Source: a virus | Reading direction: 5' to 3' (one strand) | Virus record (IMG/VR): IMGVR_UViG_3300046804_004458 | Coordinates: 1 to 64,000 of that record | DNA: 64,000 bases | Part shown: piece after piece, positions 26,846 through 63,999 of the stretch | How the letters are laid out: each line of letters starts with the position of its first letter | How positions within the stretch are numbered: position 1 is the first letter of the stretch | Made by a program: the position numbers and the translations under genes | Notes under the pieces: model-generated | Told to the model about the DNA's origin: nothing | The model's input: only the letters and a program-made list of their open reading frames with translations | The model's database searches: none

Positions 26846-27268
26846 ATGGTTATAAATAAAAAAATAACAAGAGGGGTTGTTCACGTTGTTCCTCATAAAT
26901 ACAACAGTGTATACAATGTATTAGAAAATGGGGATTTATGTATTAATATAGAACAAGTTGAAATACATAGACTAAAAGAAAAAATTGGAATGACTACAGT
27001 TAAAAAAACAGCTTCTATATCAGGTGAGTTTGAGTTTATGTTTAATATGGAATATAAAAGTAATCAAGGCCTACCTGGAAATATACATATAATAGAACAA
27101 TTAACACCTGTAGTAGAGGACTCTCCTGAGGAATATTTGTACTGGGATGAAAATAAAACTATGGTTCACCGTGACAACAGTGGTAATGTTATTTACAGAT
27201 ACCAACTATATTGCCCAAATGAACCATATAATACATCCGGTCAAATAGATACACTTTTAGTTATTTGA
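26846..27268 (+). CDS. Hypothetical protein, opposite strand within the late block
   Basis: ORF preceded by a TAAATTTG -7 box at 26818-26825. Confidence 0.6.
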   Translation: MVINKKITRGVVHVVPHKYNSVYNVLENGDLCINIEQVEIHRLKEKIGMTTVKKTASISGEFEFMFNMEYKSNQGLPGNIHIIEQLTPVVEDSPEEYLYWDENKTMVHRDNSGNVIYRYQLYCPNEPYNTSGQIDTLLVI

Positions 27269-33116: not shown

Positions 33117-33133
33117 TGTAAAATTTTTTATTT

Positions 33134-45100: not shown

Positions 45101-48100
45101 AGTAATGGTAGAACTAGGAGCTGTAGGTTCTGTAGTTGTAGTACCAGTAGTAGATAAGGATATTCCTTCATCTTCAGCATACCCTTCTATTTCTTCTATT
45201 ATCTGTTCTTTTGAGCCTCTTATATCCAAAGGATTATAGGAAGTAAGTGCACCTGTAGCAAGTACCTCATCCATCATTTTTTGAAGGTCAACAGGTTTTC
45301 CATTAATTCTAACCACTATTGATTTACCTGCTACAGGTGCAGCGGTACTTTGTGGTAAAGGTTCTGTAGGCACAGGCTTACCTGTTGCACTATAGAAGGC
45401 AAGTATTTCACTCTTTATCTTATCTTCGTCAGCAGGTGTACCAACACTTTCCTCCTCTTCAGGACTACGTGATCCTGCTTCAGGAGTTTGGTGTTTTTCT
45501 TCTTCTTCAAGACCACTTTCTTCAAGTGCTCTTAGTGCTGTTTGTAAATACTTAATGTGTTCTTTTAGCTTTGATATATTCTCTTCCTGCTGTTTACGTA
45601 TATCTCCTGTAAACAGTCCTCTTGCAAACTTGTCTCTTTGTTCAGTAAGGTCTTTAATAGCTAAATTAGTATCACCTATTTTTTTCTCAAGCCTTTCAAG
45701 TTCTGCCTTATAATTATCTTGAAGTTCTTCCGGTAATTCTGCCCCTTCAGTAAACTGATATATAAATACATTTAACTCATCAATCAGCCTTTGAGTAGAA
45801 GCTACTATACCATAATGGTATTTAAGATTTTCATCTATAGCTTTAAGTTGTTCTTGTCCATAGGCTATTTGTGCATCTAAATTAGAAATACTTAAATCAG
45901 GACGTAAAATGTCACCAACTAACCCCTTGAGCAATTTCTTTTTTTCCTTGCTTATCTCTTCAAATGAAGCAGTAGATTGTTCAAGTTCAGTTATAGCAGC
46001 ACCATATGCAGCTTTGAGATACTCAAGCCTTTTCAGTGACTTCTTAATAGCTGTTTTTTCTTTTTCAAGAGACTTGATATTTTGTTTAATAGACTTTACT
46101 TCCTGTGTAAGGTTTCTTACAAGTTCCTGTGCAGCTTTTCTTGTTTCTTTTTGACTTTTATCAGTAGTAGCTAGTATCTCTTTATGCCTAACCAACTCTT
46201 CCTGTATCTTAATAATACTATCTTTTGCAGAAGTAAGTTCTGCTTCATTAGCAGTTACCCTGTCCAAAAGGTCAGTTATCTCCTGTTCTGTTTTACCAAG
46301 AAGATTACGAAGTGTTTTTTGTTGTTTGAGGTTACCTGTCCTTTCTCTTTCTTTCTGCTCCTCAGCAGTAAGGATATCTTCAACAGGTACACCTGTTACT
46401 GCAGATATTCTGTTTTTAATTTCTTTCATATGCTTATCATGCAAATCTGCACTTGTAGCATACATGGCATCTTTTGCTTTATTGTAGAGAAGATTAAAAC
46501 CTCTAGGATCAGAAATAACATTCAGAGCACTTACATAGTTACCATGATCCCTATTAAGTTTATCATAGTCCATAAGAAGGTCAAATGCTTTTCTCATTTC
46601 CCTCTTATCTGCTATAGGTGCACCTTTAGTAAACTGTGCATTGATAGCTTGCATATAACCATTATGTGCATCCATCATTTTCTGCATAGCATTATACATA
46701 CCGGTATCACCTTGTATAAAAGGTGTGGTCTTTCTAAATGCTTCTTCTGCCCCTCTGGCTTTGTAATCCTGAAGTATCTTATAATTACGTACCCACTGCT
46801 CAAGGTGTTTTATCTGCTCTTGTGTACTGGTAATTTGAGCTGATACATCTTTATCTTTTTCAAGGCCTTTATAGTTCTCAAGCTGCTCTTGAAGTTGACC
46901 CAACTCATATTCAGCATTTGCAATATTTCCTAGTATCTCAAATGTCTTATTTGCAGAAGAACCTAAAGAAGGTAATGCTGCTGCCTGAGATCTTAACTCT
47001 ACAGCTCTTTCTATAGTCTTATCTGCATGATAAGAAGTAGTAGCAAGTAACTGTATTGCCTCATCAAGTGACCTTTTAGCCATTCTTGCTTTTACATACT
47101 CTTTAGGATCATGTGCATATAGTTCTGATTGTACAAGATGTCCAAACTCATCCATTAATCTTTCATGAGTATCATGGTATTTTTCTATCTCTCTTACAAT
47201 TGATTCAGTATATGCCTTTGCAGATATTTTATTTTCCCCGGTAGCTTTTAAACCAAAAGCTTGTTCAAACTGTTCATCTGTAAGTCTTTCACCAAATTCT
47301 TTAATACTATCCCTAAAAGATTCATAGTTGCCTGTTTTAATAGCAACTGCTACTGCATTAGTAAATGCATCATCTTTTGCATTATTAAATTCATACTTAT
47401 CACCATCAGTTAAAGCACTTGCTATATTCTGATCAGCTTTACCCTGTACCTTTATACCTGCAATATGTTCAGATAATGATTTTTTAGGGTCATTGTACCA
47501 GGTATTAAGAATGTTTTGACTATCCTGAAGCATCTTTTTATGGGCATCTACTTCTCCTTTATATTGAGAGTTAATACCGGCATTTGCTTTTCTGAAACTT
47601 TGCATAACCCCGGCCTGCATAGGATTTATAAACAACCCAGTAGCAGCTCCCATAAGGAATGTCTGCCAGCCTTCCATGCTTAATTGAGATTGTAAACCTT
47701 TACCCCAATCAGCAGCAGTAATATCTTTTAATAAATTACCACCTTGTATGTCTTTGCCCCCATCATAAAGATTTTTATAGTAGTCCCTAAATGTGTTGTC
47801 GGAAGTATTTTGAAGGATTTCCTGCAGACCTTCCATTACCTCTAATTTACCAGACCTTTTTCCTACCTGCCACAAAGCAGTACCAAGGCCAAAATCTTTT
47901 CTTATCTGGTTAAAATTAGAAAGAGCACCAAAGGTACCTTTTACATAAGCCTGTGTTGCTTTTTGCCCTTCTTTTAAACCACCACCTTCAACTGCACCTG
48001 TAATGTCTCTTCTTAACTTGCCTGTAATACTATATACTTCCCCCTCACCTTTTTCAAGTGCTTCTCTCATAAGTCTGGAAGAGGAACCAAACTTATTCAT

Positions 48101-49321: not shown

Positions 49322-52300
49322 TTATTTGAATTGTTTTTCAATATCTGCTACTGTCCTTCCACCTGCTACAGATGGTTTACTTTGATGATTTTTTTGAAGA
49401 ATTGCTCTTTTAGTAATTTCTCCATTAATCCAATTATCTTTTACTTGATAAACCTCATCTGGATTTTTAGGTCTATCACCTACCATAAGATTAATAGGTG
49501 TAACTGTCCAGTTTTTTTCAAACTTAGGTGCACCATTTTCCATTTTAATGCTACCATCATCATTTAATTCCCACTGCATGGTATACATATTCATTCTTGT
49601 AAATCTACCTGTAACAGGATCTTTACTTGACTGATCTGGTAACATTTTATATAGAAATCCTGCATTCTTTTCAAAATCACTTTGCTCTAAACCATTAGGG
49701 TCATAAAGTAGTTGACCATACCTATAACTTGTCTGAGCTTGTGGAAGTTGTGTAATATATGAACCTTTAGCTGTAGAGCTAATATCTAACCATACTTTTT
49801 TAAGGTCTTTAATACTTGCATAAGACATTCCACCTACTTTCTTTTTATCATCTCCACTTTCTTCGTCTTGAAAAACAAGTTCCACAGCCGGTTTACCGTT
49901 AGGACCATATTGGTGAAAAGATGTACCTTTAATAAGTTTAGTTATTGTGCCAGTAAATGCATTGTCTTCTAATGCTTTTTTTACTTCTGTAGAGACTACA
50001 TCTTCCATTTTATTGTCATCATCTACAGTATACACTTTATCATGGTTAACAGGTATAAGTGCTTCCTTTGTAAGGACAATACCAGTTGCTTTTTGTATAG
50101 GATTAATATCTTTACCTGTATCTGACATATCATATGTAATAGCTGAACCTGATACCCCTGTTTTATAATCAGACATTTGTCCAACTACTTTTGAACTTGC
50201 ATTTTCTATCATTTTTTGAAAATCACCAGATTTGCCAAATCTATTTGACATTCTATCAATAAACATGTTAAGTTGATGATCTAATAATTCTTTAGGTTCA
50301 AAACCTAAAAATTTATTGGCATTTTTGGCAAAAGGTTGATTTGCATATTTATTGTAATCAACATCATTTAAACTAATTTTTTTATCATTTACTGTAATAC
50401 TTTTCAAATTATAATCAGTAAGTGCACTAATAGAATAATCAAATTGACCTCTACTATATGCATCTACAAGATCTTTAAGACTTATTATATCTCCATTTTT
50501 TAATGGTATGTTATCAAGAGATTTTGAAGCAACAGTTAATAAATCATTTGATTTAACTATATCAGTTTTGTTATCATTAAGTACTTTTTTATAAGCTTCT
50601 TTATTTTGTACAGTTAAAAAGTCTTTTAGCTTTTCTTTATATTCAGTGTTTCTTTTAGTATAATTAGCCATCTCTTGTTCCATAGCTTGATTTTGCTGTG
50701 CTATTTTGGCAATCATAGCAGTCTTTTCAGGATCAACTGTTTGAAAAAAAGAAGATGTACTGTCTTGATGAATAAGAGCAGATAATCCTTGTCTTAGTGT
50801 ATTAGGACCTGTTTGTGCCCCATCTGTAGTATACTGTTCTAGCCCATTATCATTAAGTATTTTAACAACCTGCTCTCTCCTTTTAATTGCTTCAGGTGAC
50901 ATATCATATTTACCTGTAGTAAGAGAGTTTTGTAGATCCTGGCTTAATAACTGCAAATCAGGTGCAGACAACCCTCCTACAACTACATTGTCACCAACCA
51001 TTTGCAATATTCCATTTATGCCAAAAGCTGTTTTATTTACAGTATACATAGACATAGCTTGAGTAGCCCTATGCATATCTAATGTAGGAATTTTTACAAC
51101 ATCCGTACCAGGTATAGTGACTGTGCCTGATGTAATTGAAGGCATAATAGGGCCTTTTACTCCCCCTACTCCAGTACCATCACCTGTACCACCAAAACCA
51201 GTAGTAGGACTAAACATACCTGCACCAATACCTTCTTCAGAAAAATCAGAAATGTATTGATCCAGTAATTCTTTAGTTATTGTTACACCTGCTTTTCTAA
51301 GTGTTTCTATTGCTTTTAGACCATAACCAGCTTCTTTTTGTTGTGCCCCTAGCTGAAGCTGTACTATTTTAAGTTGTTGTTCAAACTGTTTATTAGCTTG
51401 TTCATTAAAAGCCTTTGCAATAGGATTTTCTTTAAACTCAACACTTGATATAGATGCCCTGCCTACTGCCCATCTATCTGCATCATGAGCAGTAGAAATA
51501 TTTTTAACATAGTCCCTTGGATTAGCAATTATATCCTCTACTTTCTTTTTATAGTCAGGTGAATTAACATCTATAAGCTTTAAAAAATCAGATGTGTTTG
51601 AGGAGTATCTAATATTATCTCCTATAGTAACACCATAGGATTTTTCAAAGTCATCTTGTGTTTGTCTTGCAAGATTAGCATACTCTTTTGCTCTTTTAAG
51701 ATTATATTCATATTCCTGTTCTTTTTCAGGAGACAGTTTAATATTAGCAGGATTTATTGCCCAGCCATTAGGATCAAGTGGTACAAGAGAATTGTTTTTT
51801 TGTCTCCACTCTAAAGCAGTTTTATTATAGTCAGCTATTGTGCCGGCATAATATTTAGTAACATCTTCTACTACATTTTCACCAAACATTCTTGTTGCCT
51901 GCTCTTCTGTTACACCCGGATTTTTATCCTTTATATCTTTTATTGATTGCCCCATTTGAGCAATTGCTATTGCCCTTTGTTGAGGAGCATACTTTTCTCT
52001 TGAGGCAACAGATTTATAAAAAGCTTTATAAGCATTTACAGATCTAGGTCCATTTGTAAAAATGGTCATCAAATTACCATTTGTATCAACAGTAGTTATT
52101 CCCCCACCTTTTCCTTGAGTCTCAGACCATTCTTTAGCAGCATCTGTATCTATGTTATAGACAGGCATTGCTTCTCTTCTTTCTAATTTGCTATAAGCAT
52201 CCTTAGTCATTGGAGCTACAGCAAGCTGCTCTAAACCTTGATTAAGATATATACTCATCCAAGAATTATAAAGTTCTCTTTCTTTTTCATCTTTACTAGT

Positions 52301-52681
52301 CCTCATTGATTCCAGTTTTTGAAACTGAGTATTATAATGAGAAGTAAGTGCCTGGTTCTGCAATAGCAACTGATCCTCATGAAAAGGAGCCATTATGTTC
52401 TCAGCAGCTAGCACATTTTTTGGATCAGAAAGATCAGTAGCAGCAATAGACTTCATCTGCTCCAATGCACTATTTTTGTAATCCTGTTGTCTTTTCTTTG
52501 CCTCTTCTCCAGTAACTGGCTGATTAAAAATAGTATCGTATTTGCCTTTTACTTCTTTAAAACCTTTCTCATACTGCTGGTTAGCCTTCATCTGCATTGA
52601 AGCAAGAAAACTAAAATCAGGCTGATATACAGGAATTGGGGTTACGGATGAGGGGACATTTTCAAGCCAATTATAATCCAT
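49322..52681 (-). CDS. Virion cargo/ejection protein
   Basis: N-terminal YQPDFSFL...QQYEKG as recalled from crAss-like cargo proteins. Immediately upstream of the RNAP. Confidence 0.65.
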   Translation of the reverse strand: MDYNWLENVPSSVTPIPVYQPDFSFLASMQMKANQQYEKGFKEVKGKYDTIFNQPVTGEEAKKRQQDYKNSALEQMKSIAATDLSDPKNVLAAENIMAPFHEDQLLLQNQALTSHYNTQFQKLESMRTSKDEKERELYNSWMSIYLNQGLEQLAVAPMTKDAYSKLERREAMPVYNIDTDAAKEWSETQGKGGGITTVDTNGNLMTIFTNGPRSVNAYKAFYKSVASREKYAPQQRAIAIAQMGQSIKDIKDKNPGVTEEQATRMFGENVVEDVTKYYAGTIADYNKTALEWRQKNNSLVPLDPNGWAINPANIKLSPEKEQEYEYNLKRAKEYANLARQTQDDFEKSYGVTIGDNIRYSSNTSDFLKLIDVNSPDYKKKVEDIIANPRDYVKNISTAHDADRWAVGRASISSVEFKENPIAKAFNEQANKQFEQQLKIVQLQLGAQQKEAGYGLKAIETLRKAGVTITKELLDQYISDFSEEGIGAGMFSPTTGFGGTGDGTGVGGVKGPIMPSITSGTVTIPGTDVVKIPTLDMHRATQAMSMYTVNKTAFGINGILQMVGDNVVVGGLSAPDLQLLSQDLQNSLTTGKYDMSPEAIKRREQVVKILNDNGLEQYTTDGAQTGPNTLRQGLSALIHQDSTSSFFQTVDPEKTAMIAKIAQQNQAMEQEMANYTKRNTEYKEKLKDFLTVQNKEAYKKVLNDNKTDIVKSNDLLTVASKSLDNIPLKNGDIISLKDLVDAYSRGQFDYSISALTDYNLKSITVNDKKISLNDVDYNKYANQPFAKNANKFLGFEPKELLDHQLNMFIDRMSNRFGKSGDFQKMIENASSKVVGQMSDYKTGVSGSAITYDMSDTGKDINPIQKATGIVLTKEALIPVNHDKVYTVDDDNKMEDVVSTEVKKALEDNAFTGTITKLIKGTSFHQYGPNGKPAVELVFQDEESGDDKKKVGGMSYASIKDLKKVWLDISSTAKGSYITQLPQAQTSYRYGQLLYDPNGLEQSDFEKNAGFLYKMLPDQSSKDPVTGRFTRMNMYTMQWELNDDGSIKMENGAPKFEKNWTVTPINLMVGDRPKNPDEVYQVKDNWINGEITKRAILQKNHQSKPSVAGGRTVADIEKQFK

Positions 52682-52818: not shown

Positions 52819-55800
52819 CTATTTCATAAATTTTTGTAATGCTTTACCACCATATTTAAACACTCCTCTTTGCTCAAGCAGCCTATACATATCACCTGAT
52901 TCATGTTTAAATTGTCTTTTGGCCAGCTCTCTTCTTTCTGCCTTAGTTAGCTGTCCAAGAGTTTTGTTTTTTATTTCAGGATATATTTCACTACCATATC
53001 CTTCATTGCTCCATTTTTTAAGAGCTTTATCTACTGGTGTGTCTGCCTTATAATAACGGGATGGCATAATACCATCTGTGTCACCAAACAGTTGGGTTTG
53101 GTATGCTTTTATACCTGTATCAAGATCGGGAAAAGCTGCAAAAGTACCACCATCTTTTTTCTTTATACCAGAGTCTACTGCACCAAATAGTTTACTAAAT
53201 AGTGGTATATATTGTATATTACCTGGGTTATTTGTTGCAGTAGCTATATCTGTTTTAGACATTCTCTTTGTTTCTACTCCGGATAATGGCTTCTTCTTTG
53301 AAAAACTCATTTCTTCTTGAGTGTACTGGGAAGATAGGGGTTGTTGGTAATATGTGTTATCAACAGCAGGTAATTGTACATCTGGCATAGAAGGGAGTCC
53401 TATAAACTCACCTCCTATTTGGTAATGGGGTAGTCTCTCTGCATTATGTTGATAAGCAGGTGCCATGCTTGGTAGGGCCATATGAGAGCCACCATACCTC
53501 ATTACATTACCACCATACATACTTGTTGTAGCCTCGTCACTTGCCTTAGGTGAAATGCCTTTTGCTAAATTAATAAGATCTCCAAGTTTTGCATCAGGAA
53601 ATTCTTTTTTATATTCTTTTACTCTAGCTAATAGAGTTGGATCTTGTTTTTGTAAATCGGCAAAATATTTACTTTCCATACCTGTCTTAAACCTAGGAAA
53701 ACCATATGGGTCTATATCAAAGTAAGGAGATGTCTTATTAAGCCATGCTGTTTTAACTGCTGTATCATGATGTTTTTGCATCCTGTCAACATACTCAGCT
53801 TGTAACCTACCCATCTCTCTTTGGTAATCTCTGTCTGATAAGAAATTAGCTTTGTTTAGTTCAGCAAGCCTATTGGCCTGTTTAGCCATAAGTTCATTAG
53901 TTATCTGGGCAGCCTGTGCATTAGCTGCATTAGCTATAGCAACATTTTGAGCATTATATTGTGCTATTACATCAGCAGCTTGTTTTCCGGCCTCTCCTTG
54001 TATACCTAATGCAGTTGCTCTTGCTGCTCTTTGGTTTCCCTGAGCAGCCATTTCCATAGCTGTTCTAGCTGATTCCTGCTGTGCAGCAATAGCTCTTGTA
54101 GGATCAGCAAATACTACCTGAGGTATTACTGCTTGTGGTACTGGTTCATATGGCTCAAATTTTTTAACTTGTCCCATTTGCATAAGATTAAAGATATCTC
54201 CTAATACATTTGGGTCTACTTGAAAATTACCAAAATTCCAGTTTCTTTTTTTCCTGTCCCCCTTTTTATCTTTACTAATAGTAGAAGTAACCAAATCTGT
54301 AGAAACAGAAGAAGGTGTAATAGTACCCGGAGAAGCAGGCATTAAATTAGGGCCAGAAGTTGGTAAAGGCTGTACCTGCTTATCAACAGCAAGATCCTGT
54401 TCCATTCCCATTTTAATGTTTCTATAACCAGGTCCCCATAAATCTGCCCTGCCTTGACCAGGTAAACCAGCCCCTACTCTACCTTGTCCATATAATTGAG
54501 CATATTTAAGGGGGTCATGTAAAGCAGCTCTAGTAAAAAAGGCCACATCTTCTTGAGAAAGAGGTTCTCCTGTTTTATGTTCTTCCGCAGATTTGTACAT
54601 ACCATAAGGAGGAGGCACTGTTTGAGCAACTTGCATGTTTGCTTGTTGATTGTCTTGTTCTTGTGTATCTCCTACAAACCAGTCTCTTACACCATGTATA
54701 TTACCAGTACGTATACCATATTGAGCTTCTGGTAACTGCCCACCATACTCCGCTTCTTTAGGAGCATTAGGATCATGGTGGTCCATACCCATATGTTTTT
54801 TTATTCCTTCTTGTACCTGAGCTAGTTTATCTAACTTGGCCAGGTAGTTGTCAGTCATAAGTTGGGCTGTGGTCTTAGAACCTTGGTCAGCATTGGGATC
54901 ACTCAGTACTTTTTTAAATTTGTTGAGGTCATACTTCTTAGCTATTTCAGCAGGTGTATAGCCTCCTCTTTTTGGTTTCATACCAAACATAGCAAGTACC
55001 TTGGCATCTTTTATTTTAAGAGCTTTAGTATCAGAGTATACAAATGAATTAGAAGGAACATTGATATCTTTACCACCTTGAGTGTGTGGCTTTCCATTAA
55101 CATTCATTAATTCCATTGAACCATCCTGATCAAAGTCTCCAAGTACTTGTTCTTGTTTTTCAGCATTTATATCACCACCTTCTTTTGCTTCAGGTAGTGT
55201 TTTACCTGTAGTGTGATAAGGACTAACTTTTGCAGTACCACCCGGATATCCGGTAGGAGAAGACCAAAACCTGTCCAAAGCATACCCTTGGCCAACTTGT
55301 TGGTTACCATAACCATGTGATGGGCCCTTAGATGCATATCCACCTGCCCACATCATAGGTGTTTCTCCTTCACCAGCACCCATACGGATATTGTCAACTA
55401 GTGTATTGGTAGGCATACTTTTTATACGTATTTTCTTTTTCATTCCTCCATATTTATAAGTTTCTTCACCTGTACTACGTATTTTACCTATAGGATCACC
55501 AGTTTGTTTTCTGGTTCCTGCAAAATAGTTAGATGGTAGTTCTTGTCCAGATGCTTTTCTTTCTTTGTATTTGCCAATAGCCTCTTCTCTTGTTGGAAAT
55601 CCTGTAGCAGCAAGACCTGTTAAAACAGGAGTTGTTTGTGTTGTTGTAGCAGGTACAGTAGTAGGGGTAGATGTTGTAGCTGTAGGATAAGCAGTTTTCC
55701 AATGTTCTTCCATCTGCTGTTGTGTCAAAGGTTCAGTACCAGTAGACATAAATCCTGCTGTACCAGGGTATCTTTTACCAGAAGGATCAAGATGTTCATA

Positions 55801-56172
55801 TTGGTAAGTCCTATATGCTTTTTGCTTTTCTCTTGTTCCTACCCAACTTGGTATACCACCCCATGGATCTTTACCAGTTATACCTGATACAGAGCTGGGC
55901 ATTGATTGTGACCTAGCCATCATATCTGCCTGTATAGCAGCAGCTCTGTTATAATCAAAACCAGTCTGTTGTGCAACTTGTCTTTGTACATCTTGATTTC
56001 TGTTCCAATCCCTCACATACTGACCAGGTACCTGAGATAAAGCAGCTTGGTATTTATTCCAACTTTCTCTTTCTGCAGGTGTAACTGGAGCATAGGGCAT
56101 AAATGTAGTTGGGGGATTAGAGTATCCCCCTCCCTGCATTTTTGGCACTGCTTTTATTTTTATCTTGGCCAT
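52819..56172 (-). CDS. Modular virion cargo protein with GG linkers and a C-terminal NNPGNI putative muralytic domain
   Basis: GKPHTQGG..FVYSD domain, Ala/Gln coiled coil, NNPGNI..FAAFPDLDTG, about 8 xxxGG motifs. Confidence 0.7.
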   Translation of the reverse strand: MAKIKIKAVPKMQGGGYSNPPTTFMPYAPVTPAERESWNKYQAALSQVPGQYVRDWNRNQDVQRQVAQQTGFDYNRAAAIQADMMARSQSMPSSVSGITGKDPWGGIPSWVGTREKQKAYRTYQYEHLDPSGKRYPGTAGFMSTGTEPLTQQQMEEHWKTAYPTATTSTPTTVPATTTQTTPVLTGLAATGFPTREEAIGKYKERKASGQELPSNYFAGTRKQTGDPIGKIRSTGEETYKYGGMKKKIRIKSMPTNTLVDNIRMGAGEGETPMMWAGGYASKGPSHGYGNQQVGQGYALDRFWSSPTGYPGGTAKVSPYHTTGKTLPEAKEGGDINAEKQEQVLGDFDQDGSMELMNVNGKPHTQGGKDINVPSNSFVYSDTKALKIKDAKVLAMFGMKPKRGGYTPAEIAKKYDLNKFKKVLSDPNADQGSKTTAQLMTDNYLAKLDKLAQVQEGIKKHMGMDHHDPNAPKEAEYGGQLPEAQYGIRTGNIHGVRDWFVGDTQEQDNQQANMQVAQTVPPPYGMYKSAEEHKTGEPLSQEDVAFFTRAALHDPLKYAQLYGQGRVGAGLPGQGRADLWGPGYRNIKMGMEQDLAVDKQVQPLPTSGPNLMPASPGTITPSSVSTDLVTSTISKDKKGDRKKRNWNFGNFQVDPNVLGDIFNLMQMGQVKKFEPYEPVPQAVIPQVVFADPTRAIAAQQESARTAMEMAAQGNQRAARATALGIQGEAGKQAADVIAQYNAQNVAIANAANAQAAQITNELMAKQANRLAELNKANFLSDRDYQREMGRLQAEYVDRMQKHHDTAVKTAWLNKTSPYFDIDPYGFPRFKTGMESKYFADLQKQDPTLLARVKEYKKEFPDAKLGDLINLAKGISPKASDEATTSMYGGNVMRYGGSHMALPSMAPAYQHNAERLPHYQIGGEFIGLPSMPDVQLPAVDNTYYQQPLSSQYTQEEMSFSKKKPLSGVETKRMSKTDIATATNNPGNIQYIPLFSKLFGAVDSGIKKKDGGTFAAFPDLDTGIKAYQTQLFGDTDGIMPSRYYKADTPVDKALKKWSNEGYGSEIYPEIKNKTLGQLTKAERRELAKRQFKHESGDMYRLLEQRGVFKYGGKALQKFMK

Positions 56173-56195
56173 TGTACTGGTTTGTCACTATTAAA

Positions 56196-58397
56196 TTACA
56201 TCATTTCTACCTCATATCCTAACTTTCGTAATCTTGCTATTTCAGCATCATCTACTTCATGCACACTACCAGGTACATACCCACCTGCAGCATAAGCAGT
56301 ATCCCTCATAGGCATACCACCCATCATAAAAGTGCCACCATATTTACCCATAGTAGAAGGAAAATAACCTGGTTTTGCAAAGCCATAACTATCTGGCCGA
56401 AATACACCTTGTTGTGTATAATCACCATGCCCACCCGGCTGATTAACTTTAGCAAATACATTTTCAGAAAGTCCTCTTTGTGTAGCTGCCTTTCTGTCTC
56501 TTTCTGCATCCTTAAAACTTTGTAAATAAGAAGCAGTACCTAAAGCACCCATACCTGCACCAAGTATAGCTTGTCCCCAGTTAAGCCCTTTTTGGAATCT
56601 ACCTTGTTTTTTAGCAAGTTCCTTTTGTCTCTCTACCTCATCATAGTGTGCCTGAGTAGTATCACCTGTAGTAGGATCATAAGCTTGAACAGACCCTTTT
56701 CCAAACTTAATATTTTCCTGAGCTTGTTTATCTGTCATTCCTTTTCTCCAGTCAACAACAGGCACATCTGGAGTGTCTAATACACCAGTTACATCTGTTT
56801 GTGGATTAGGAGTAAGATCATTGGGATCTTCTACAGGTGCAGTAACAGGGGCACTAACTGGAGTAGTAGGCATTATTGTAGGATCTTCTTCATAATCACC
56901 GGGACCAAACTTACCACCAGGTAAGTAGTAACCTCCATAAGCCATAAACTTAGCCAAAGGATGGTAAGGATTTACATATCCACCATATGCTTCAAAACTA
57001 GGAAATTGTCCTCCCTGCATCATATGTTGTTGTACCTCTGGGTTATGTTGTAAATAGTTCTCAACACTGTTAAGGTAATCATTAGCCAGAGTCATCTTAC
57101 TAGCTACCCATGGTTCTACATATGTATCTTGGCCTAATACCTTACTAAGCTCACCTATCTTATGCTGCATCTGATTCATCTGCCCAATAGCCATATTAGC
57201 ATATTCATTAGTCTGACCACCATCCTGCATCATAGCTGTACCACCATATTCCCTGTTCTTTGCCATAGCCCTAAAAGTCTTAGCAAGATTGTATCTCCTA
57301 GAACCGGGAGGGCATGATGAGCTACCAAATTTAGAACCTGTACAAACACCTTCTGTACCTCTTCTTTTTATAGAAGCAGTTACACTTTGGATCCATTTAC
57401 CACCTTTTTTCATTTCAGGTGTGTATTCCTCTGAATCAAAATCACCACCCTGCTCATACATTCCACCTGGCATATAGGTGTATCTATCAGGAGTTACCAT
57501 ACCACCTGTTTGCATGTTGCTCATTATCTTCTGCTGTACTGATGCAGGTAAAGCTCTAAAGCCTGGGTTGTCTGGCATAGCAGGTCCACCAAACTCATGC
57601 TTCCACTTAGCAGCATTCCTAGCAAAGTTAGCTTTCTTCACCATAGCAGGTGAGTAGTTCTCTTTGTGTGCAAGAACCTGGGAAGCAAATGCTTGGACAC
57701 TTTTACCGTGTTTTGAAGCTGCAGCAGTAAAGGTTCCTCTTTTTGAGGGCTTAATGTAGATGCCCCCTTTTTTCATTTCAACAGGTAAATCTTGTAACAT
57801 TCCACCCCCTGTGCCTGGGCCAGGATTCATTGCAAATGGATGCACAAGTTCTGCTCCAGGTATCTGGCCACCAAATTTTAAATGGGTAGGCAAGTCCTGA
57901 AGCATTCCTCCCCCCTTACCTGTACCTGGGTACATAGCAAAAGGATCAACTATCTCTGCACCTGGAGTTATACCACCAAATGCCATATGTGTAGGAAGAT
58001 CCTGAAGATAACCACTACCTCTACCTGTTCCAGGTGCCATAGCAAAGGGAGTAGGGTATTCATTGTTAGTCACATTAAAAGATGATGAAGGGTACCCTCC
58101 TCCTTTAAAAATAGGAGCAGAGCCACCTGGCATAAAAGTAGGGCCACCCATCTTGGAGTAGCTACCACCGTTAGCAAAATAAACACCATTAGCATAAGTA
58201 CCTGAGTCACCGGCAGTAGATACCCATTTTTCTCCATTCCAGTAAGAACCAGAATGACCAGAAGCAGCTCCTCCCATTTTCATTGTTTGATTACCTTTCA
58301 TATGAGGATACGCTGCAAAGAAATCCTTCTCAGAGGGGTACTTTTGGTAAAACTCCTCTTCGGTATTACAGCCGGCCATTTTCATGAACTTATGCAT
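56196..58397 (-). CDS. Modular low-complexity virion protein with about 22 GG linkers
   Basis: Mini-domains between M/Y/F-x-x-GG motifs, plus a hydrophobic GAGMGALG segment. Confidence 0.7.
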   Translation of the reverse strand: MHKFMKMAGCNTEEEFYQKYPSEKDFFAAYPHMKGNQTMKMGGAASGHSGSYWNGEKWVSTAGDSGTYANGVYFANGGSYSKMGGPTFMPGGSAPIFKGGGYPSSSFNVTNNEYPTPFAMAPGTGRGSGYLQDLPTHMAFGGITPGAEIVDPFAMYPGTGKGGGMLQDLPTHLKFGGQIPGAELVHPFAMNPGPGTGGGMLQDLPVEMKKGGIYIKPSKRGTFTAAASKHGKSVQAFASQVLAHKENYSPAMVKKANFARNAAKWKHEFGGPAMPDNPGFRALPASVQQKIMSNMQTGGMVTPDRYTYMPGGMYEQGGDFDSEEYTPEMKKGGKWIQSVTASIKRRGTEGVCTGSKFGSSSCPPGSRRYNLAKTFRAMAKNREYGGTAMMQDGGQTNEYANMAIGQMNQMQHKIGELSKVLGQDTYVEPWVASKMTLANDYLNSVENYLQHNPEVQQHMMQGGQFPSFEAYGGYVNPYHPLAKFMAYGGYYLPGGKFGPGDYEEDPTIMPTTPVSAPVTAPVEDPNDLTPNPQTDVTGVLDTPDVPVVDWRKGMTDKQAQENIKFGKGSVQAYDPTTGDTTQAHYDEVERQKELAKKQGRFQKGLNWGQAILGAGMGALGTASYLQSFKDAERDRKAATQRGLSENVFAKVNQPGGHGDYTQQGVFRPDSYGFAKPGYFPSTMGKYGGTFMMGGMPMRDTAYAAGGYVPGSVHEVDDAEIARLRKLGYEVEMM
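57763..58052 (-). repeat. Three 105-bp (35-aa) tandem units PFAMxPGxGxGxGxLQDLPxxMxxGG
   Basis: Pro codons at 58049, 57944 and 57839 (period 105). Confidence 0.85.
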
Positions 58398-58453
58398 TGT
58401 GTATTGTTTTAGTATTATCTATAATAAATTTACTCAATTTCCGTGACTTTTCC

Positions 58454-61400
58454 TTATTTATATTTGGACAACCAACCACCGTACTTTTTACTCTCTTTTT
58501 GAGATTTTGCAATTGCTGTAACAGTTGCACCTATTCCTATTTTGTTTAAAGATTTTAATAAATCTGACATGTTGTAATCATCAACTTTGGTACCACGAAG
58601 ATAATCATGTCCTCCATTTTGATATTGTTGTATTGATCCTCCGTATTTGTTCTCATTTAATGATGCTGCTCCTGCTGCTATTCCAACAGGTGTATACATC
58701 TTATTCATTACCTCTACCAACTTCTTCTTATCTACATTCTTTATTAGTTGTAGCATTGTGGGGTCTTCTCCGTTCATAAACTTGTTAGTGCCTAACATAC
58801 TTTGCAATTTATCTATATCAGTTTCTGATACTTTTGCATATGGATTCTTAGGGTTTAAAACAGACCTCATCTCATCTATTCGTGCCATCACCTCTGTAGG
58901 AGTTTTTATGTAGTTAGAGGCATTATTATTATCCTTGAACACAGAGCTTAGTAACTGCCTTTCTTTCTCCGTAAATGACCCTGCAGCATAGGTTTTACCA
59001 TGCCCCATTGCTTCATGGACTGTTACATTGTATAAGTCCCCGTAATTAGGCGCACCTACTGATATACTTTCCCCTGTTCCAGTTTCCATATTAGGTCCAT
59101 AATACATTCCCCGTTTACTATCTGCATTATAGTCTATACTGGCATCTTTTCTAAGATGTTGTACAGATGTTCTTTCAGGTACAGGGTTTATTCTATTAAC
59201 GAATGGTTTAAATTTATTAGATTGCCAATGAGGTACATCTGAGACATTATATTGATATATATCTTGAAAAGTATTCATTAATTGATTATCATCCATTGCC
59301 AATATTTCTTTCTGTGACCAGTCAGCAGGAACAATTCCTTTTTCTACATCACTTCTTATTTTCTTAGCAATATCTAATTTATCTGCTTCTATAGAAGGAG
59401 TCATACTTTTCATAGCAGCATACCTTTTCTTATATTCAGGAGAAGATAAAGCCCTATCTGCAAATTGAAATGCATCATCTACAGTTCTATCTGTTAGAAA
59501 TTTATGCCTGCTATCCTTATTCATGAATAACATCTTCACTTTCTCTTTATTGGTAACAGGCGGTTTATATCCAAAATTGATAGCTGCCCCCATTTCTGGA
59601 GTAGATTGGTACCCAGTTCTAGGATTAACACCAAAGCTCTGTAGTATCTGTTGCTCCTTATTCAGTTGTGGCACCTCTGTTATAGTAGGCATTGGTGTGT
59701 TACCTGGAGTATTGCCTATTATCCCCATTGGGAATCCTCCTCCTGAGCCACCGGGCACATCTACTTGCTGATAACCCTTTAGCCAATGAGGTTGACCTTT
59801 ATATACATTAACAGCTTCTATAGGTATTTCATTTATTACTTGTCCTTGTTCATTTATAGGTCTATGGGCAAAATGCCTACCTCTTTTTACTACTTTACCT
59901 GTTACAGGGTTTATCTCTCCCGGCCCCACCATAGGATGTTGACTCTCATATATATACCCATTACCTTCTTTAGGTAGATAGTCTTTATGAACTTTCCCTT
60001 TAGCAAATGAGGGAAACGCTGTTGGTCTCCTTACTTCCTTACCATTCAGAAATATTCCTACAGATGCTCCTTCTGGATTAGACCTTATCACTCTATTTTG
60101 TATAGCATCCAGATAGGCATTCTCATCTACAGCCCTATAATATGCATTTGGATTATTCAGCTTATTAGCCCATGGGTTTATCTTGTATGCATTTTTAGCA
60201 AGAGGTTTCAATGCCTTACCTGCCATACCTGCACCACTCATCAGCATCTCTGCATTCATGAACTTCTCTGCCAGTTCACTACCAGGTGCCATCTTCTGTG
60301 CGAATTCCCTGTTAGCCCTTTCCTCTGCCTCTTGTTGATACATTTTACTCCTCAGGTACTCATGGTCTCTCTGTTGTTGTGGTGTACTATACCCCTGTGC
60401 TGGCCCTATATACTGTTGTGGGTGTTCCATAGCCCATTGTTCACCTATAGAGTATTGTGGTATAGGTTGAGGCATTTGAGTAGTAGTTCTGGTAGCTGGT
60501 TTATTAGCTCCTTTTGTGTATCCTATTCCTCCACCTTCCTTATACTGAGGTATATTCATACTAGTCTTAGTACGAAATCCTGCTGGTGTATATTGTCCAC
60601 CTTGTACATCAGGACTATACCAGTCTGTACTCTCTGTTATGTATGGGTTGGGTATATCTCTTGGTGTATATTGTGTTCCTGTTGGTAGTTCTTGTAAGGT
60701 ATATGGAAGTTGTTGTATTTGCTCCCCATAGATATACGGTTGTACTGGTTTTTTATAAACAGGACTCCAAGCCACACCATCATAATAGGACTCCATAGGC
60801 TTTATAGTTCTGTGCCATAAATCTGGGCTCGAGTGTTTCCCTATCCTATAGTCACTATTTATTGGTAGACTTTTATAATAATTTATTATCTTGTTATCAT
60901 TGATAACAGGATCTATAGGGTCATATGTTTTATCTAATTCTATATGTGAAAAGGCATTATTGTCATTCTTCTTATCTCTGTTCCCTATATTCTTTTTCCA
61001 AGTTTCATACAAACCACGACTTTTCAAGTACTCTATATCATCTGGATTTTTTATGGTATTACGCCTTTGATAATCATAGGCATTGTAGAGATTCAGACTA
61101 TCCTGATATGCTCTGACTTTACTTTTATCAGATGTATAGATAGGTTTCCTACCTGCTTTACCACCATCTTGATACTGCCCTAACCACCCACCATATTCTT
61201 TTTTCTCAGCAGCTCTGATCTTTTTTTCTTGTTGCAGCATCTCCTTGGTAGGCTCTTTACCTGAACCAGCATTAGCCCTGATGTTATCCCACAATCCTCT
61301 TTGGGAGTAAGAACCATCTGCTCTTTTTATCATGCCACCATGTTCCATTTCTACCGGCCCACCATATTCCCAGGTGCCAAATTTCTTATGCCAGTACAAG

Positions 61401-61972
61401 GGGCTAAATGGGTCAGTTGCTTTTGCTGAATCCCTACCACCCATTCTGCTCCAGAAGTTCTTTCTTCTTTGTTCAGAGTGGTGTTGTTTAAAATCCTGCA
61501 TACCTCTGTAACCACCTTGTACTACTTTGTAACTGTCACCTTTTTTGGCAAGTACTTTCCATTTGTGCTGGCCATCACCTTGTTTCTTTTGCCCTACATG
61601 GGTAAAGCCCATGTTCTTGTATCTTTGAGGTATACCACCATTTTTCATTTCTTCTACATAACCACCCTCCTCAAATAAAGGCATAGAAAAGTTAGAATGT
61701 TCAGCAGGTGAGTACTTAGCAATACCGGTATAATCTACAGTCACCTGCTTAGGTAAATTTTGCAATGGAAACTCCATAACAACAGATCCTGGGAAGGTAT
61801 ACTCTCCACCAGGTAGCATAAGCTTTTTGTTGCCATAGTTATCAATGCCAAGCAAAGGATGATCAACCTCATTCATGGTTATATTACCAGATGGAATGAT
61901 GTTAAAAGAATTAAACCTATCAGGTGAATCAGCTTTGTACCCCTGAGTACTGTATTTTTTAAGCCAGCTCAT
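58454..61972 (-). CDS. Modular virion protein with about 10 GG linkers, including a metallopeptidase-like module
   Basis: IIPSGNITM N-domain, RRKNFWSR module, GLWDNIRAN module, HEAMGH...PTEVMAR. Confidence 0.7.
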   Translation of the reverse strand: MSWLKKYSTQGYKADSPDRFNSFNIIPSGNITMNEVDHPLLGIDNYGNKKLMLPGGEYTFPGSVVMEFPLQNLPKQVTVDYTGIAKYSPAEHSNFSMPLFEEGGYVEEMKNGGIPQRYKNMGFTHVGQKKQGDGQHKWKVLAKKGDSYKVVQGGYRGMQDFKQHHSEQRRKNFWSRMGGRDSAKATDPFSPLYWHKKFGTWEYGGPVEMEHGGMIKRADGSYSQRGLWDNIRANAGSGKEPTKEMLQQEKKIRAAEKKEYGGWLGQYQDGGKAGRKPIYTSDKSKVRAYQDSLNLYNAYDYQRRNTIKNPDDIEYLKSRGLYETWKKNIGNRDKKNDNNAFSHIELDKTYDPIDPVINDNKIINYYKSLPINSDYRIGKHSSPDLWHRTIKPMESYYDGVAWSPVYKKPVQPYIYGEQIQQLPYTLQELPTGTQYTPRDIPNPYITESTDWYSPDVQGGQYTPAGFRTKTSMNIPQYKEGGGIGYTKGANKPATRTTTQMPQPIPQYSIGEQWAMEHPQQYIGPAQGYSTPQQQRDHEYLRSKMYQQEAEERANREFAQKMAPGSELAEKFMNAEMLMSGAGMAGKALKPLAKNAYKINPWANKLNNPNAYYRAVDENAYLDAIQNRVIRSNPEGASVGIFLNGKEVRRPTAFPSFAKGKVHKDYLPKEGNGYIYESQHPMVGPGEINPVTGKVVKRGRHFAHRPINEQGQVINEIPIEAVNVYKGQPHWLKGYQQVDVPGGSGGGFPMGIIGNTPGNTPMPTITEVPQLNKEQQILQSFGVNPRTGYQSTPEMGAAINFGYKPPVTNKEKVKMLFMNKDSRHKFLTDRTVDDAFQFADRALSSPEYKKRYAAMKSMTPSIEADKLDIAKKIRSDVEKGIVPADWSQKEILAMDDNQLMNTFQDIYQYNVSDVPHWQSNKFKPFVNRINPVPERTSVQHLRKDASIDYNADSKRGMYYGPNMETGTGESISVGAPNYGDLYNVTVHEAMGHGKTYAAGSFTEKERQLLSSVFKDNNNASNYIKTPTEVMARIDEMRSVLNPKNPYAKVSETDIDKLQSMLGTNKFMNGEDPTMLQLIKNVDKKKLVEVMNKMYTPVGIAAGAASLNENKYGGSIQQYQNGGHDYLRGTKVDDYNMSDLLKSLNKIGIGATVTAIAKSQKESKKYGGWLSKYK

Positions 61973-61978
61973 TACTCA

Positions 61979-62416
61979 CTATTTAAACGTATTAAAGTAT
62001 TTTGCTTTTGCAAATGAGCCTTGTAGTTCAGAAGCCAAATTAGTCAGCTGCTCAAGATGCCTCTGTTGTCCATAATCACAAAGAGCTACTGTAAACTGAA
62101 AACCTTCTTCAAGAAATTTAGCAACTGCTTCTTCACTAAATGGTTCCACTGTCTCACTGGTAAGTCCACTAAATCTTTTAGGAGCTTGTATACCCAGCAG
62201 GTACTCAGAGATAGCATCTTTACTATCTACAAGATCCTTGTACAAAGTATCCAGCATATTGTGCTGTGCAAAACTGGTAGTTTGCAAATGATAAAAATGA
62301 GCTTTGCTGTGCATGTTGAACAGCTTGCTTATTATACTGTCAGGAGTCATTCCTGATGTCATGCCCATGCTCATTGGTATTGTGGACATTGGAGAAATTG
62401 GTTTTTTTAAGTTCAT
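61979..62416 (-). CDS. Ferritin/Dps-like four-helix protein (DUF5856-like)
   Basis: HFYHLQTTSFAQH..LDTLY....D..SE...KY. Confidence 0.7.
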   Translation of the reverse strand: MNLKKPISPMSTIPMSMGMTSGMTPDSIISKLFNMHSKAHFYHLQTTSFAQHNMLDTLYKDLVDSKDAISEYLLGIQAPKRFSGLTSETVEPFSEEAVAKFLEEGFQFTVALCDYGQQRHLEQLTNLASELQGSFAKAKYFNTFK

Positions 62417-62541: not shown

Positions 62542-63999
62542 TCATCTTGCTGAGTATTGATTTTTTGTGGAAGCATACCTGATTGTCAGGCTATTCTTAC
62601 CAAGTTTTGTCTTTCTCATAAAGATACGTGTTCCTGTATATCTTACTCTCTTTTGTTGGTTCCATGGTTTTAATAAATTAAAATAGGGGGTGTTTGTACT
62701 AAAAGTATAACCATTTGAATTAGTAGTCAACATCGGTGTATTGGCCAGTGAAAACTGCCCCCTATCTGCTGTATAGTCATAAAAGTCATTTACCCGGTAT
62801 TTATTCTCTACCTTCTGGTAAAGAATCTGTCTTGTTGGGCCTAACCAGTTAGGGTAGTTTAAAGCAGCATATGGATTATCCCATGGTTTAAGAAGCATAT
62901 TTTGCAAAGTGCTGTTTTGCTCTTTGTTATACACCATAAAATAATCAAAGGACTGATCATAGTTTAAAAACTTATCCACTCCATTAGGAGCATATTGATA
63001 ACTTTCTAACAACCATTCTATATTTTGTAGAATAGTTTCAGTTACTTGGGTATTAGTAAAATATTCTATCTCTACAGGGTAGTCTATTCCATAAAAATTA
63101 GCAAATGATTGTAAGCTTGTATTATGTCTCCACAACCTTCCAGACAAACCATTTGATGTAAAAAAGCCTAACTTTGATGGTACTACATGAGAAGGATGCC
63201 AATCATGCCAACTAATAAATCTTCTACTATTACAGTCATAAGAAAGAGTCCAACTTGCATTTTCAAAATAAGCCGGATCACCAATATTTAATTTTATAGA
63301 TACACCTGTTACTGTATCTCTATAAACAAATGTATTATTTACAAGAGTTACAAGAGATGGATTAATTACCTTATAATCTTTTTTACATATGTAAAGAATC
63401 TCATGAACAGGGTCATATACTAATTGGCAACCTACTCCTGCTACTGGATTATCTTTTAAAGAAAAAGATGGATATTGCTGAACCAGTTGTGATGGCAGGT
63501 AATTGATCAAGTGGTAGTTTATACCGCACTCTACACCAAGATCAGCTATTTGACCTCCTTTAAGATTAAATATTTTTCCAGTGTCTTGTGATACCCAAAA
63601 GGCACCATGTTTTGTATTTATTACCCCCTGCCTGCTTTGACAAGATGCATACTCATAAGCATCATCAATGTTATTGAGTGACTGCAAAGTTTGACTAAAC
63701 AACAATCCAGTTCCTACTGTATATTCTGTAGCACTTTTTGATGGTATAGTTTCTACCCCGGCAAACATTACTGGGGAGCTATTTTCCATAAGAAATAAAG
63801 CTCCTGTTTTATGCAGGTCCTTAATTACATAAACCCTGTCATTAAAATCCTTGTAGTTATTAGGTAAAAATATTCTCCAGTTATCCTGCATCTGCTCTTC
63901 TTCCTGTGGTAAAGAATATGCTACTCTACGTGGATAGTAAGAAAAACAGGTATATGCAAGAATAGGGTCATAGTCTCTTCTAAGACAACTGCCCCATGA
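62542..63999 (-). CDS. Tail stabilisation/muzzle-like protein, C-terminal part (5' end outside window)
   Basis: Frame is open to the window edge (YPRRVAYSLPQEEEQMQDNW). Motifs YDP, SWTLSY..FISWHDW, LWRHN, FYG, YNKEQNS match the crAss-like tail protein. Confidence 0.75.
   Translation of the reverse strand, partial: SWGSCLRRDYDPILAYTCFSYYPRRVAYSLPQEEEQMQDNWRIFLPNNYKDFNDRVYVIKDLHKTGALFLMENSSPVMFAGVETIPSKSATEYTVGTGLLFSQTLQSLNNIDDAYEYASCQSRQGVINTKHGAFWVSQDTGKIFNLKGGQIADLGVECGINYHLINYLPSQLVQQYPSFSLKDNPVAGVGCQLVYDPVHEILYICKKDYKVINPSLVTLVNNTFVYRDTVTGVSIKLNIGDPAYFENASWTLSYDCNSRRFISWHDWHPSHVVPSKLGFFTSNGLSGRLWRHNTSLQSFANFYGIDYPVEIEYFTNTQVTETILQNIEWLLESYQYAPNGVDKFLNYDQSFDYFMVYNKEQNSTLQNMLLKPWDNPYAALNYPNWLGPTRQILYQKVENKYRVNDFYDYTADRGQFSLANTPMLTTNSNGYTFSTNTPYFNLLKPWNQQKRVRYTGTRIFMRKTKLGKNSLTIRYASTKNQYSAR

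Follow-up and report, generated by a model that had tools for sequence, protein, structure and literature searches.

Why should three neighbouring phage genes carry the same short Gly-Gly peptide some forty times? The question is raised by a 64,000-nucleotide stretch of DNA (the window; positions 1 to 64,000 of the IMG/VR virus record IMGVR_UViG_3300046804_004458, a viral record of 79.6 kb with a CheckV completeness of 62%), in which three adjacent open reading frames (ORFs) on the minus strand, here called A (1172 amino acids, aa), B (733 aa) and C (1117 aa), are studded with Gly-Gly (GG) pairs, many of them closely preceded by Met or an aromatic residue. We refer to these peptides as seams. 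An initial annotation of the locus had read the three genes as polyproteins that are cut at the GGs by a phage maturation protease. The seam pattern is real and widespread, and apparently undescribed in the literature, and its best explanation, to which we give an even chance, is a hinge or handle between small modules that stays uncut.

The strict motif [MYFW]xxGG occurs 30 times in the 3022 aa of the three proteins (8 in A, 16 in B and 6 in C) versus 10 times in the 21,349 aa of all other ORFs of at least 100 aa in the record, which represents a 21-fold enrichment over the rest of the proteome (Fisher p 1.3e-19). When the motif was defined more widely, with Met, Tyr, Phe or Trp at position -3 or Tyr or Phe at position -1 of the GG, 11, 21 and 8 seams were counted in A, B and C. 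The sum of 40 agrees with the "about 40" of the initial annotation, which had used this wider definition, whereas composition-preserving shuffles gave an expectation of 2.0, 3.7 and 1.9, and the observed value was reached in 0/2000 of them. The scarcity of the motif in the giant neighbouring proteins, first noted by eye, was borne out by counting: the 5392-aa protein holds 3 motifs and the 1960-aa and 1119-aa proteins 0-1 each, all at or below chance. The same distribution was observed at 12 related IMG/VR loci, where the one to three genes directly after the muzzle gene are always motif-rich (4-15 each), and the upstream tail genes and the homologues of the 1119-aa gene hold 0-1 motifs.

The residues around the GG follow a defined profile, with Met, Tyr or Phe at -3, Lys, Glu or Gln at -2, Tyr at -1 and Tyr, Met or Ile at +1. 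Met at -3 is the most enriched residue (6-fold), and in the wider family Tyr and Phe at this position equal it in frequency. In 257 related proteins, 2971 GGs were observed versus 1867 expected, 1419 of them being of the motif type, and GG pairs spaced by 4-7 residues numbered 402 versus 54 in shuffles, a 7-fold excess. Thus, the basic unit is a short peptide that is frequently doubled or arrayed, as exemplified by FANGG-SYSKMGG-PTFMPGG-SAPIFKGGG of B, a protein rich in Pro, Gln, Met and Tyr as well as in Gly (14%). Our literature searches gave no published description of the seam motif or of the processing of crassvirus cargo.

Alignments of orthologues revealed that GG pairs persist where their flanks do not align. 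Among 37 C-type orthologues, conservation reaches at least 90% at G243, G277-278, G477-478 and G920-921, in the midst of sequence that has no consensus. An AlphaFold2 model of C, with a mean predicted local-distance difference test score (pLDDT) of 57, contains confident domains at aa 26-163, 333-464, 653-873 and 973-1106. All 8 of its 8 motif-type GGs lie in segments of pLDDT <50 or at a domain edge, and four plain GGs (105, 366, 403 and 1008) lie inside folded domains. In this model the seams are therefore placed in linkers rather than buried, as had been proposed for them at the outset. At the nucleotide level the seams have little in common. Their junction 30-mers show a mean identity of 42% and at most 21/30 identical bases, with a common core of roughly TAT-GGT-GG; GGT encodes the first Gly at 75% of seams versus 52% elsewhere; and no DNA-level repeats were detected by Tandem Repeats Finder (TRF). 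Since seam DNA shares little while the GG pairs are conserved, the constraint falls on the peptide, and the seam is under selection at the protein level.

The protein ends resemble half-seams. The N terminus of A (MSWLKKY...) and its tail (...KKYGGWLSKYK) are the two halves of its internal doublet YGGWLGQYQDGG, and A-type proteins start with MSWLKKYxQGG and end with ...YGGWLSKYK. In C, the N-terminal leader recurs internally after YGG242 as MKKKIRIKSMPT...WAGG and resembles the start of gp45 of the crassvirus crAss001, MAKKKIKRRGKM...TGG, and C-type proteins end with ...FKYGGSALQKFIR. B likewise has a conserved C-terminal tail, ...DDAEIARLRKLGYEVEMM. The tails that follow the last GG form conserved families, such as SALQKFIR, WLSKYK and YTFEIVND. 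We also noticed that a tail of the form GG-Y-x-x-G-x-x-[HY]-[DE]-[VI]-D-x-x-E-[IL]-x-x-L-[KR]-x-x-G-Y-x-[VF]-E-[IVM], found at the C terminus of B (56196-56290, minus strand) and in the related proteins P0147 and P0049, closes many such proteins; this B-type tail is a second candidate end tag beside ...YGGSALQKFIR and ...YGGWLSKYK.

The stretches between seams behave as exchangeable modules. The ends of BLAST high-scoring segment pairs fall within 3 aa of a GG in 47% of cases for A, 64% for B and 15% for C, versus 9%, 23% and 9% for random positions, so that the claimed coincidence of motifs with module boundaries is borne out in A and B but is weak in C. Comparison of module order among relatives revealed permutation, pieces of A and B being found in other orders and in other genes. 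At one related locus (L002), A aa 208-260 lies before A aa 8-207; at another (L005), a single protein interleaves segments of A with segments of B, and the halves of C reside in two genes in reversed order.

A 63-aa module of B, bounded by GG at both ends, was followed furthest. A HMMER search of 1.84 billion cluster representatives retrieved 2138 proteins carrying it at E <=1e-3 and 1247 at E <=1e-10. Among the best 150 of the 2138 matches, identity is mostly 79-98%, and the module sits at any position in host proteins of 87-1791 aa. It nearly always follows the peptide [aromatic or Met]-x-x-G-G, and its end reads K-W-K-H-x-x-G-G; proteins that begin with the module start M-A-K-S-G-I..., so that their initiating Met lines up with the Met of the seam. 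On a 26-kb contig, a two-module form of 106 aa stands alone as a gene. AlphaFold2 predicted a three-helix bundle (pLDDT >90) with floppy GG flanks, and a Foldseek search with this model gave no structural match at E <=0.001. The permutation of order within and between genes, together with the occurrence of this module at any position in >2000 clusters, is what the early view of seams as sites of module exchange had anticipated, and both the small GG-delimited modules and the assignment of the genes to virion cargo are supported. Apart from this, the module is far more conserved than its host proteins, which are otherwise <50% identical (as representatives of 50%-identity clusters), and it is basic; nucleic-acid binding might be guessed from its composition.

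Where the genes stand in the genome points to what they encode. The late block on the minus strand runs, in order, through a 1585-aa muzzle/stabilisation-type protein, a 145-aa DUF5856 protein, A, B, C, and proteins of 1119, 5392 and 1960 aa. In crAss001 the order is muzzle gp44, cargo C1 gp45, cargo C2 gp46 and the proteins associated with the RNA polymerase (RNAP), and in 'Rudgehvirus jaberico' it is stabilisation protein, gene49, gene48 and RNAP. Genes in the gp45 position, following directly on the muzzle/stabilisation gene and preceding the virion RNAP block, were found in the window, at the 12 related loci, in 'Rudgehvirus jaberico' and in crAss001. The block is thus the crassvirus virion block. 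The source phage is a distant crass-like virus; the best GenBank matches of the muzzle part are 25-27% identical and belong to a Leptolyngbya phage, a human-gut 'csAssE' phage, and Flavobacterium and Cellulophaga phages. A, B and C are most likely carried in the particle and injected, a location that we infer from crAss001 synteny only.

Cargo protein 1 of crAss001 (C1, gp45; Pfam PF25725 crAss_CARG1; PDB 7QOG, 7QOI, 7QOJ, 7QOL and 8CKB) has been detected in virions and partly resolved by cryo-electron microscopy (cryo-EM), in which the capsid also shows a cargo zone of low, unresolved density (Bayfield et al. 2023, PMC10172136). The seam motif is not mentioned in the article, nor did searching it for words on cleavage or proteases yield a match. 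We found that gp45 contains FSAYGG, AFAEGGG, LKAFGG, NAFGG-WLNTQGG and MFAYGG, and gp46 none. B733 aa 165-271 aligns with gp45 aa 321-428 at an E value of 2e-5 and 31% identity, both flanking GGs included, and the 63-aa module is one that the two proteins have in common (gp45 aa 372-428). The resemblance to gp45 further comprises the place directly after the muzzle gene, a basic N-terminal leader ending in GG, the seam motifs, the three-helix module, a glycine-zipper hydrophobic segment and a long helical C-terminal region. The difference is one of scale: here there are three genes of 3022 aa in total with many more modules and seams, compared with 842 aa for gp45.

Other homology searches returned little. 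Pfam and PHROGs scans of whole proteins and pieces gave only DUF5754 (in A), DUF5856 (in the small neighbouring gene) and weak PHROG matches, and the DUF5872 hidden Markov model (HMM) had no match in the record. In tblastn searches against GenBank phages, A and C had no match, and B matched only via the 63-aa module; searches of PDB sequences with C1117, A aa 760-1110 and the 37-sequence profile yielded nothing meaningful. Structure comparison was more productive for the C-terminal domain of C (aa 973-1106), for which Pfam and PDB sequence matches are absent. Foldseek matched it to the Enc34 endolysin with a probability of 1.00 and an E value of 3e-3, and the Z score of 9.2 with a root-mean-square deviation of 3.1 over 120 aa stands well above the next rows, so the modelled domain is probably a cell-wall hydrolase. 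It carries a conserved TNNPGN motif. Among the C homologues, there are proteins (P0167, P0195 and P0204 among them) with YkuD (L,D-transpeptidase), SLT (lytic transglycosylase) or M23 peptidase domains. Because some homologues carry these domains, the cell-wall tool is an exchangeable bead, and the C-type proteins look like ejection proteins equipped with cell-wall tools.

We propose that the C1/gp45 kind of crassvirus cargo (ejection) protein is represented here by an expanded and mosaic set, namely A, B and C. Each chain would be a string of beads, in which tiny, independently folding modules sit on disordered linkers, the beads including the three-helix bundle, a DUF5754-like unit, a glycine-zipper membrane segment, the endolysin-fold domain and a long coiled coil. 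Every joint and every protein end bears the seam peptide, hydrophobic-x-x-G-G-hydrophobic, often doubled. In it, the Gly-Gly could serve as a hinge, allowing the chain to pass through portal and tail one bead at a time, and the flanking Met, Tyr, Phe or Trp as a small handle that docks the linker on the particle interior (portal, tail barrel or capsid) or on neighbouring cargo. In this way, seams might load many modules into the procapsid and keep them in order for ejection. Function would then survive the insertion, loss, duplication or permutation of modules and their separation into different genes; such shuffling would be tolerated because each module bears the same seam at both ends. The motif, its conservation, its position in linkers and the exchange of modules are established by the data; the hinge or handle function and the lack of cutting are inferred. 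The C-type proteins would fit the role of ejection proteins because of their endolysin-fold end and the YkuD, SLT and M23 domains of the homologues.

Is the seam nevertheless cut? True polyproteins, processed after Gly-Gly in the particle or just after injection so that dozens of mini-proteins are released from each chain, are possible in our view though rather unlikely. Candidate cutters are an unrecognised phage protease, the zincin-like domain that accompanies the virion RNA polymerase into the particle, and, after injection, a protease of the host. Such cutting is suggested by a motif that is position-specific, conserved and placed in exposed linkers, by basic N-terminal leaders ending in GG and short C-terminal tails after GG that look like removable targeting peptides, and by modules that work in any order and as separate genes. 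There is a canonical HExxH in the neighbouring 5392-aa virion protein, and zincin-mediated processing of crass RNAP fusions and of 'polyvalent proteins' has already been proposed in the literature.

The protease that the initial annotation had called for did not emerge. We searched this record (62% complete) and four relatives that are 91-100% complete and found the CE-clan proteases PF02902 (C48) and PF00770 (C5) in 0/5 genomes at E <=1, the prohead-type proteases PF03420 (S77), PF04586 (S78) and PF00574 (ClpP) in 0/5 genomes, and the C39 peptidase PF03412 in 0/5 phage genomes. The Bacteroides thetaiotaomicron genome, searched as a control, has one C39 peptidase, and thus host C39 enzymes exist. 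The site does not satisfy the adenain/Ulp-type consensus with a hydrophobic residue at P4 ((M/L/I)-x-G-G) either, since Met, Tyr or Phe occupies P5, Tyr P3, and Lys, Glu or Gln P4, a pattern repeated in 260 proteins of the wider family; C39 sites are not matched by it either. At the joint between the gp47-like and gp50-like parts of the 5392-aa protein, a giant RNAP fusion that is expected from the literature to be cleaved, inspection of the joint region for a seam found no Gly-Gly; the gp47-like part reaches to about aa 2600-2700 as judged by comparison with crAss001.

Structural data argue in the same direction. In the published crAss001 model, gp45 residues 425-552 form one ordered domain on the portal (PMC10172136). 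By sequence this segment begins A-F-G-G-W-L-N-T-Q-G-G and thus runs through G428|W429 and G435|D436; because the ordered model spans both, these two GG pairs would be uncut in the domain resolved by cryo-EM. Cutting at the common tandem seams, only 4-7 residues apart, would moreover yield useless peptides of 5-9 residues. The uncut seam is therefore favoured by the continuity of the gp45 model, the conservation of the tails after GG, and the absence of six protease families from five genomes, and cutting by a maturation protease at the GGs is not supported by these data.

Several observations weigh against the uncut hinge or handle. Its putative docking role is deduced from a single structure, and a motif at a fixed position before Gly-Gly also resembles a protease site. 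The kinship with gp45 is incomplete, as the PF25725 HMM matched nothing in the whole record at E <=10 and C1117 had no significant gp45 match, either by BLASTP or with the 37-orthologue profile against PDB sequences. Furthermore, the portal lies between two parts of gp45 in the cryo-EM structure (PMC10172136), an arrangement explained more simply by separate fragments than by 12 threaded chains. Another point comes from gel bands. The virion mass spectrometry of Bayfield et al. used one excised band and trypsin (PMC10172136) and is uninformative on the size of intact gp45 for this reason. We therefore analysed bands 1-10 of the 13 gel bands of crAss001 virions for which matrix-assisted laser desorption/ionization (MALDI) peak lists are available (Shkoporov et al. 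2018, PMC6235969, supplementary file 14), by peptide-mass fingerprinting against crAss001 virion proteins, first at 0.12 Da and then in a calibrated re-run at 0.08 Da, from which the counts below are taken.

The identities obtained fall in size order: gp44 in the top two bands (>300 kDa), followed by gp50 and gp47 (32 and 26 peptides), gp49 (43) with gp44 (17), portal gp20 (11), gp26 and gp22 (23 and 17), gp22 and gp25 (24 and 11), gp25 (13) and gp23 (12). A possible co-match of gp34 in the top bands appeared only in the looser 0.12-Da pass. For gp45 (90.8 kDa, at least 12 copies by cryo-EM), only 0-4 matches per band were obtained in bands 1-10, which equals the expectation from shuffled sequences, and none of its strong arginine-ended peptides is present in these bands, whereas these peak lists contain 11 peptides of the portal (93 kDa, 12 copies). 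gp46 was undetectable in bands 1-10 as well. Intact gp45 is hence invisible from about 58 to >300 kDa, an absence of evidence only, as fingerprints of mixtures can miss proteins, bands 11-13 (54, 35 and 15 kDa) are missing and anomalous migration is possible. With that limit, the lack of an intact gp45 band at or above 58 kDa, where the controls gave 11-43 matches, and the gp45 segments on both portal sides keep the cleavage reading alive.

We consider a further explanation unlikely. Aromatic residues or Met beside Gly-Gly could act as non-specific stickers between spacers, forming weakly self-associating or elastic linkers and, with no need of a defined docking site, a fluid, DNA-excluding condensate in the capsid that flows out via the tail. 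Such linkers are comparable with FG-nucleoporins, low-complexity regions of the FUS type and Gly/Met-rich elastomers. The many weak, repeated motifs in each chain, the arrays of B with its 14% Gly and its abundance of Pro, Gln, Met and Tyr, the strong 4-7-residue periodicity of GGs, and the unresolved low-density cargo zone of the crAss001 capsid are all compatible with this. Nevertheless, seam positions are conserved in orthologues, with a near-invariant Gly-Gly, which is more specific than usual for stickers driven by composition; most seams are single or double rather than in long arrays; and one seam is ordered in the crAss001 map.

It is less probable still that seams are evolutionary scars, that is, functionless remnants of gene ends (a start Met with its leader, and C-terminal tails) that stayed behind as small genes repeatedly fused and split or, in a weaker variant, that the Met at -3 is an internal translation start. 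Internal M-K-K-G-G-I does align with the protein starts M-A-K-S-G-I of the 63-aa module, internal YGG|MKKKIRIK repeats the N terminus of C, the A-type termini are halves of an internal doublet, and Met is the residue most enriched at -3. Functionless remnants would decay, however, yet Gly-Gly are the most conserved linker residues; Tyr and Phe match Met in frequency at -3 across the wider family; and the motif is kept in families that have diverged past detectable sequence similarity. As for a recombination signal in DNA, by which conserved seam nucleotides would supply homology for cassette exchange, the coincidence of module boundaries with seams and the GGT preference at the first Gly codon are outweighed by the low similarity of the junctions and the absence of DNA-level repeats, so we set this very improbable idea aside and retain the GG linkers as shuffling joints at the protein level, with little support for such a role at the DNA level.

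How does the proposed uncut hinge or handle compare with known systems? The substrates of adenain and the pp220/pp62 proteins of African swine fever virus (ASFV), which are cut by pS273R, are viral precursors cleaved at Gly-Gly. They too are virion-internal proteins with repeated hydrophobic...G-G sites in linkers; here, in contrast, P5 or P3, and not P4, is the hydrophobic position, and a CE-clan protease was not found in the five genomes. Cargo is loaded into HK97-fold shells by the capsid targeting sequence of T4 internal proteins and by the cargo-loading peptides of encapsulins. These short, terminal peptides rich in Gly and hydrophobic residues have their likeness in the conserved N-terminal leaders and C-terminal tails beside GG; the difference is that the peptide of A, B and C also occurs within the chain, in up to about 20 copies, and marks the borders between modules. 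A third comparison is with 'polyvalent proteins', multidomain proteins co-delivered with DNA and predicted to be processed by an associated zincin-like peptidase (Iyer, Burroughs, Anand, de Souza and Aravind 2017, PMC5512222). As far as the available portion of that article describes them, they share with the present proteins the multidomain make-up with DNA delivery, cell-wall hydrolase domains and module shuffling, and are defined by large enzymatic effector domains with no common junction peptide named, whereas A, B and C consist mostly of beads of 30-150 aa defined by the seam. A, B and C also differ in having no internal peptidase domain: we found one endolysin-fold domain, cell-wall enzyme domains in homologues, and a canonical HExxH only in the 5392-aa neighbour.

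Crassviruses are the most abundant phages of the human gut and carry several megadaltons of protein cargo. The seam offers a sequence handle by which cargo proteins may be recognised in any crass-like genome, even when homology searches fail, and the catalogue of highly conserved mini-domains lists candidates for the phage proteins that act earliest in the host. If the seams are uncut, they would amount to a docking or hinge code of a new type, used in packaging proteins. If they are cut, they would define a new phage maturation system, the bacteriophage counterpart of adenovirus and ASFV core maturation, and this would explain both the gp45 on either side of the portal and the absent intact gp45 band.

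Table. Coordinates of the seam-bearing genes, their modules and neighbouring genes in the window.
Feature	Position	Strand	Remarks
ORF A, 1172 aa	58454..61972	-	mosaic cargo-type; 11 motif-type GG seams
ORF B, 733 aa, 14% Gly	56196..58397	-	21 motif-type GG seams
ORF C, 1117 aa	52819..56172	-	8 motif-type GG seams
N-terminal leader of C, MAKIKIKAVPKMQGGG	56125..56172	-	conserved across the family
63-aa module, B aa 209-271, GG-IYIKPSKRGTFT...KWKHEFGG	57585..57773	-	predicted three-helix bundle; GG at both ends
Three tandem 35-aa units, B aa 108-212	57762..58076	-	51-69% mutual identity; each ends in hydrophobic-x-x-GG; protein level only
Glycine-zipper hydrophobic stretch	B aa 608-628		
DUF5754-like mini-domain, A aa 130-177	61442..61585	-	29.7 bits versus a cut-off of 27.4, N-terminal 500 aa scanned alone
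Best-conserved domain of C, aa 333-464 (strands, then helices)	54781..55176	-	directly after seam AKEGG (aa 332-333); followed by seam EYGG (aa 477-478)
C-terminal domain of C, aa 973-1106	52855..53256	-	predicted Enc34 endolysin catalytic-domain fold; bounded by seams at aa 920 and 1108
Muzzle/stabilisation-type gene (1585 aa), 3' part	62542..63999	-	continues to 67299 in the full record; marker of synteny, ahead of the cargo genes
145-aa DUF5856/Dps-like gene ('starvation-inducible regulator', PHROG 858)	61979-62416	-	between the muzzle gene and the first cargo gene
1119-aa gene after C	49322..52681	-	seam motifs absent here and in homologues; negative control within the block
5392-aa gp47-like/gp50-like virion RNA-polymerase fusion	33134..49312	-	HEAFH at aa 2470; DFDxD at aa 3968

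Sequence comparison did not connect the best-conserved domain of C (aa 333-464) with gp45. The sequence HEAMGH in A (aa 986-991; 59000-59017, minus strand) was considered as a peptidase motif and rejected, as it reads HExxxH rather than the zincin HExxH and the surrounding 351 aa have no Pfam or PDB match. At the far end of the block, the C-terminal two thirds of the 1960-aa protein (27261-33143, minus strand) are gp49-like, and a histidine-phosphatase domain (PF00300) was matched in two stretches near its N terminus.

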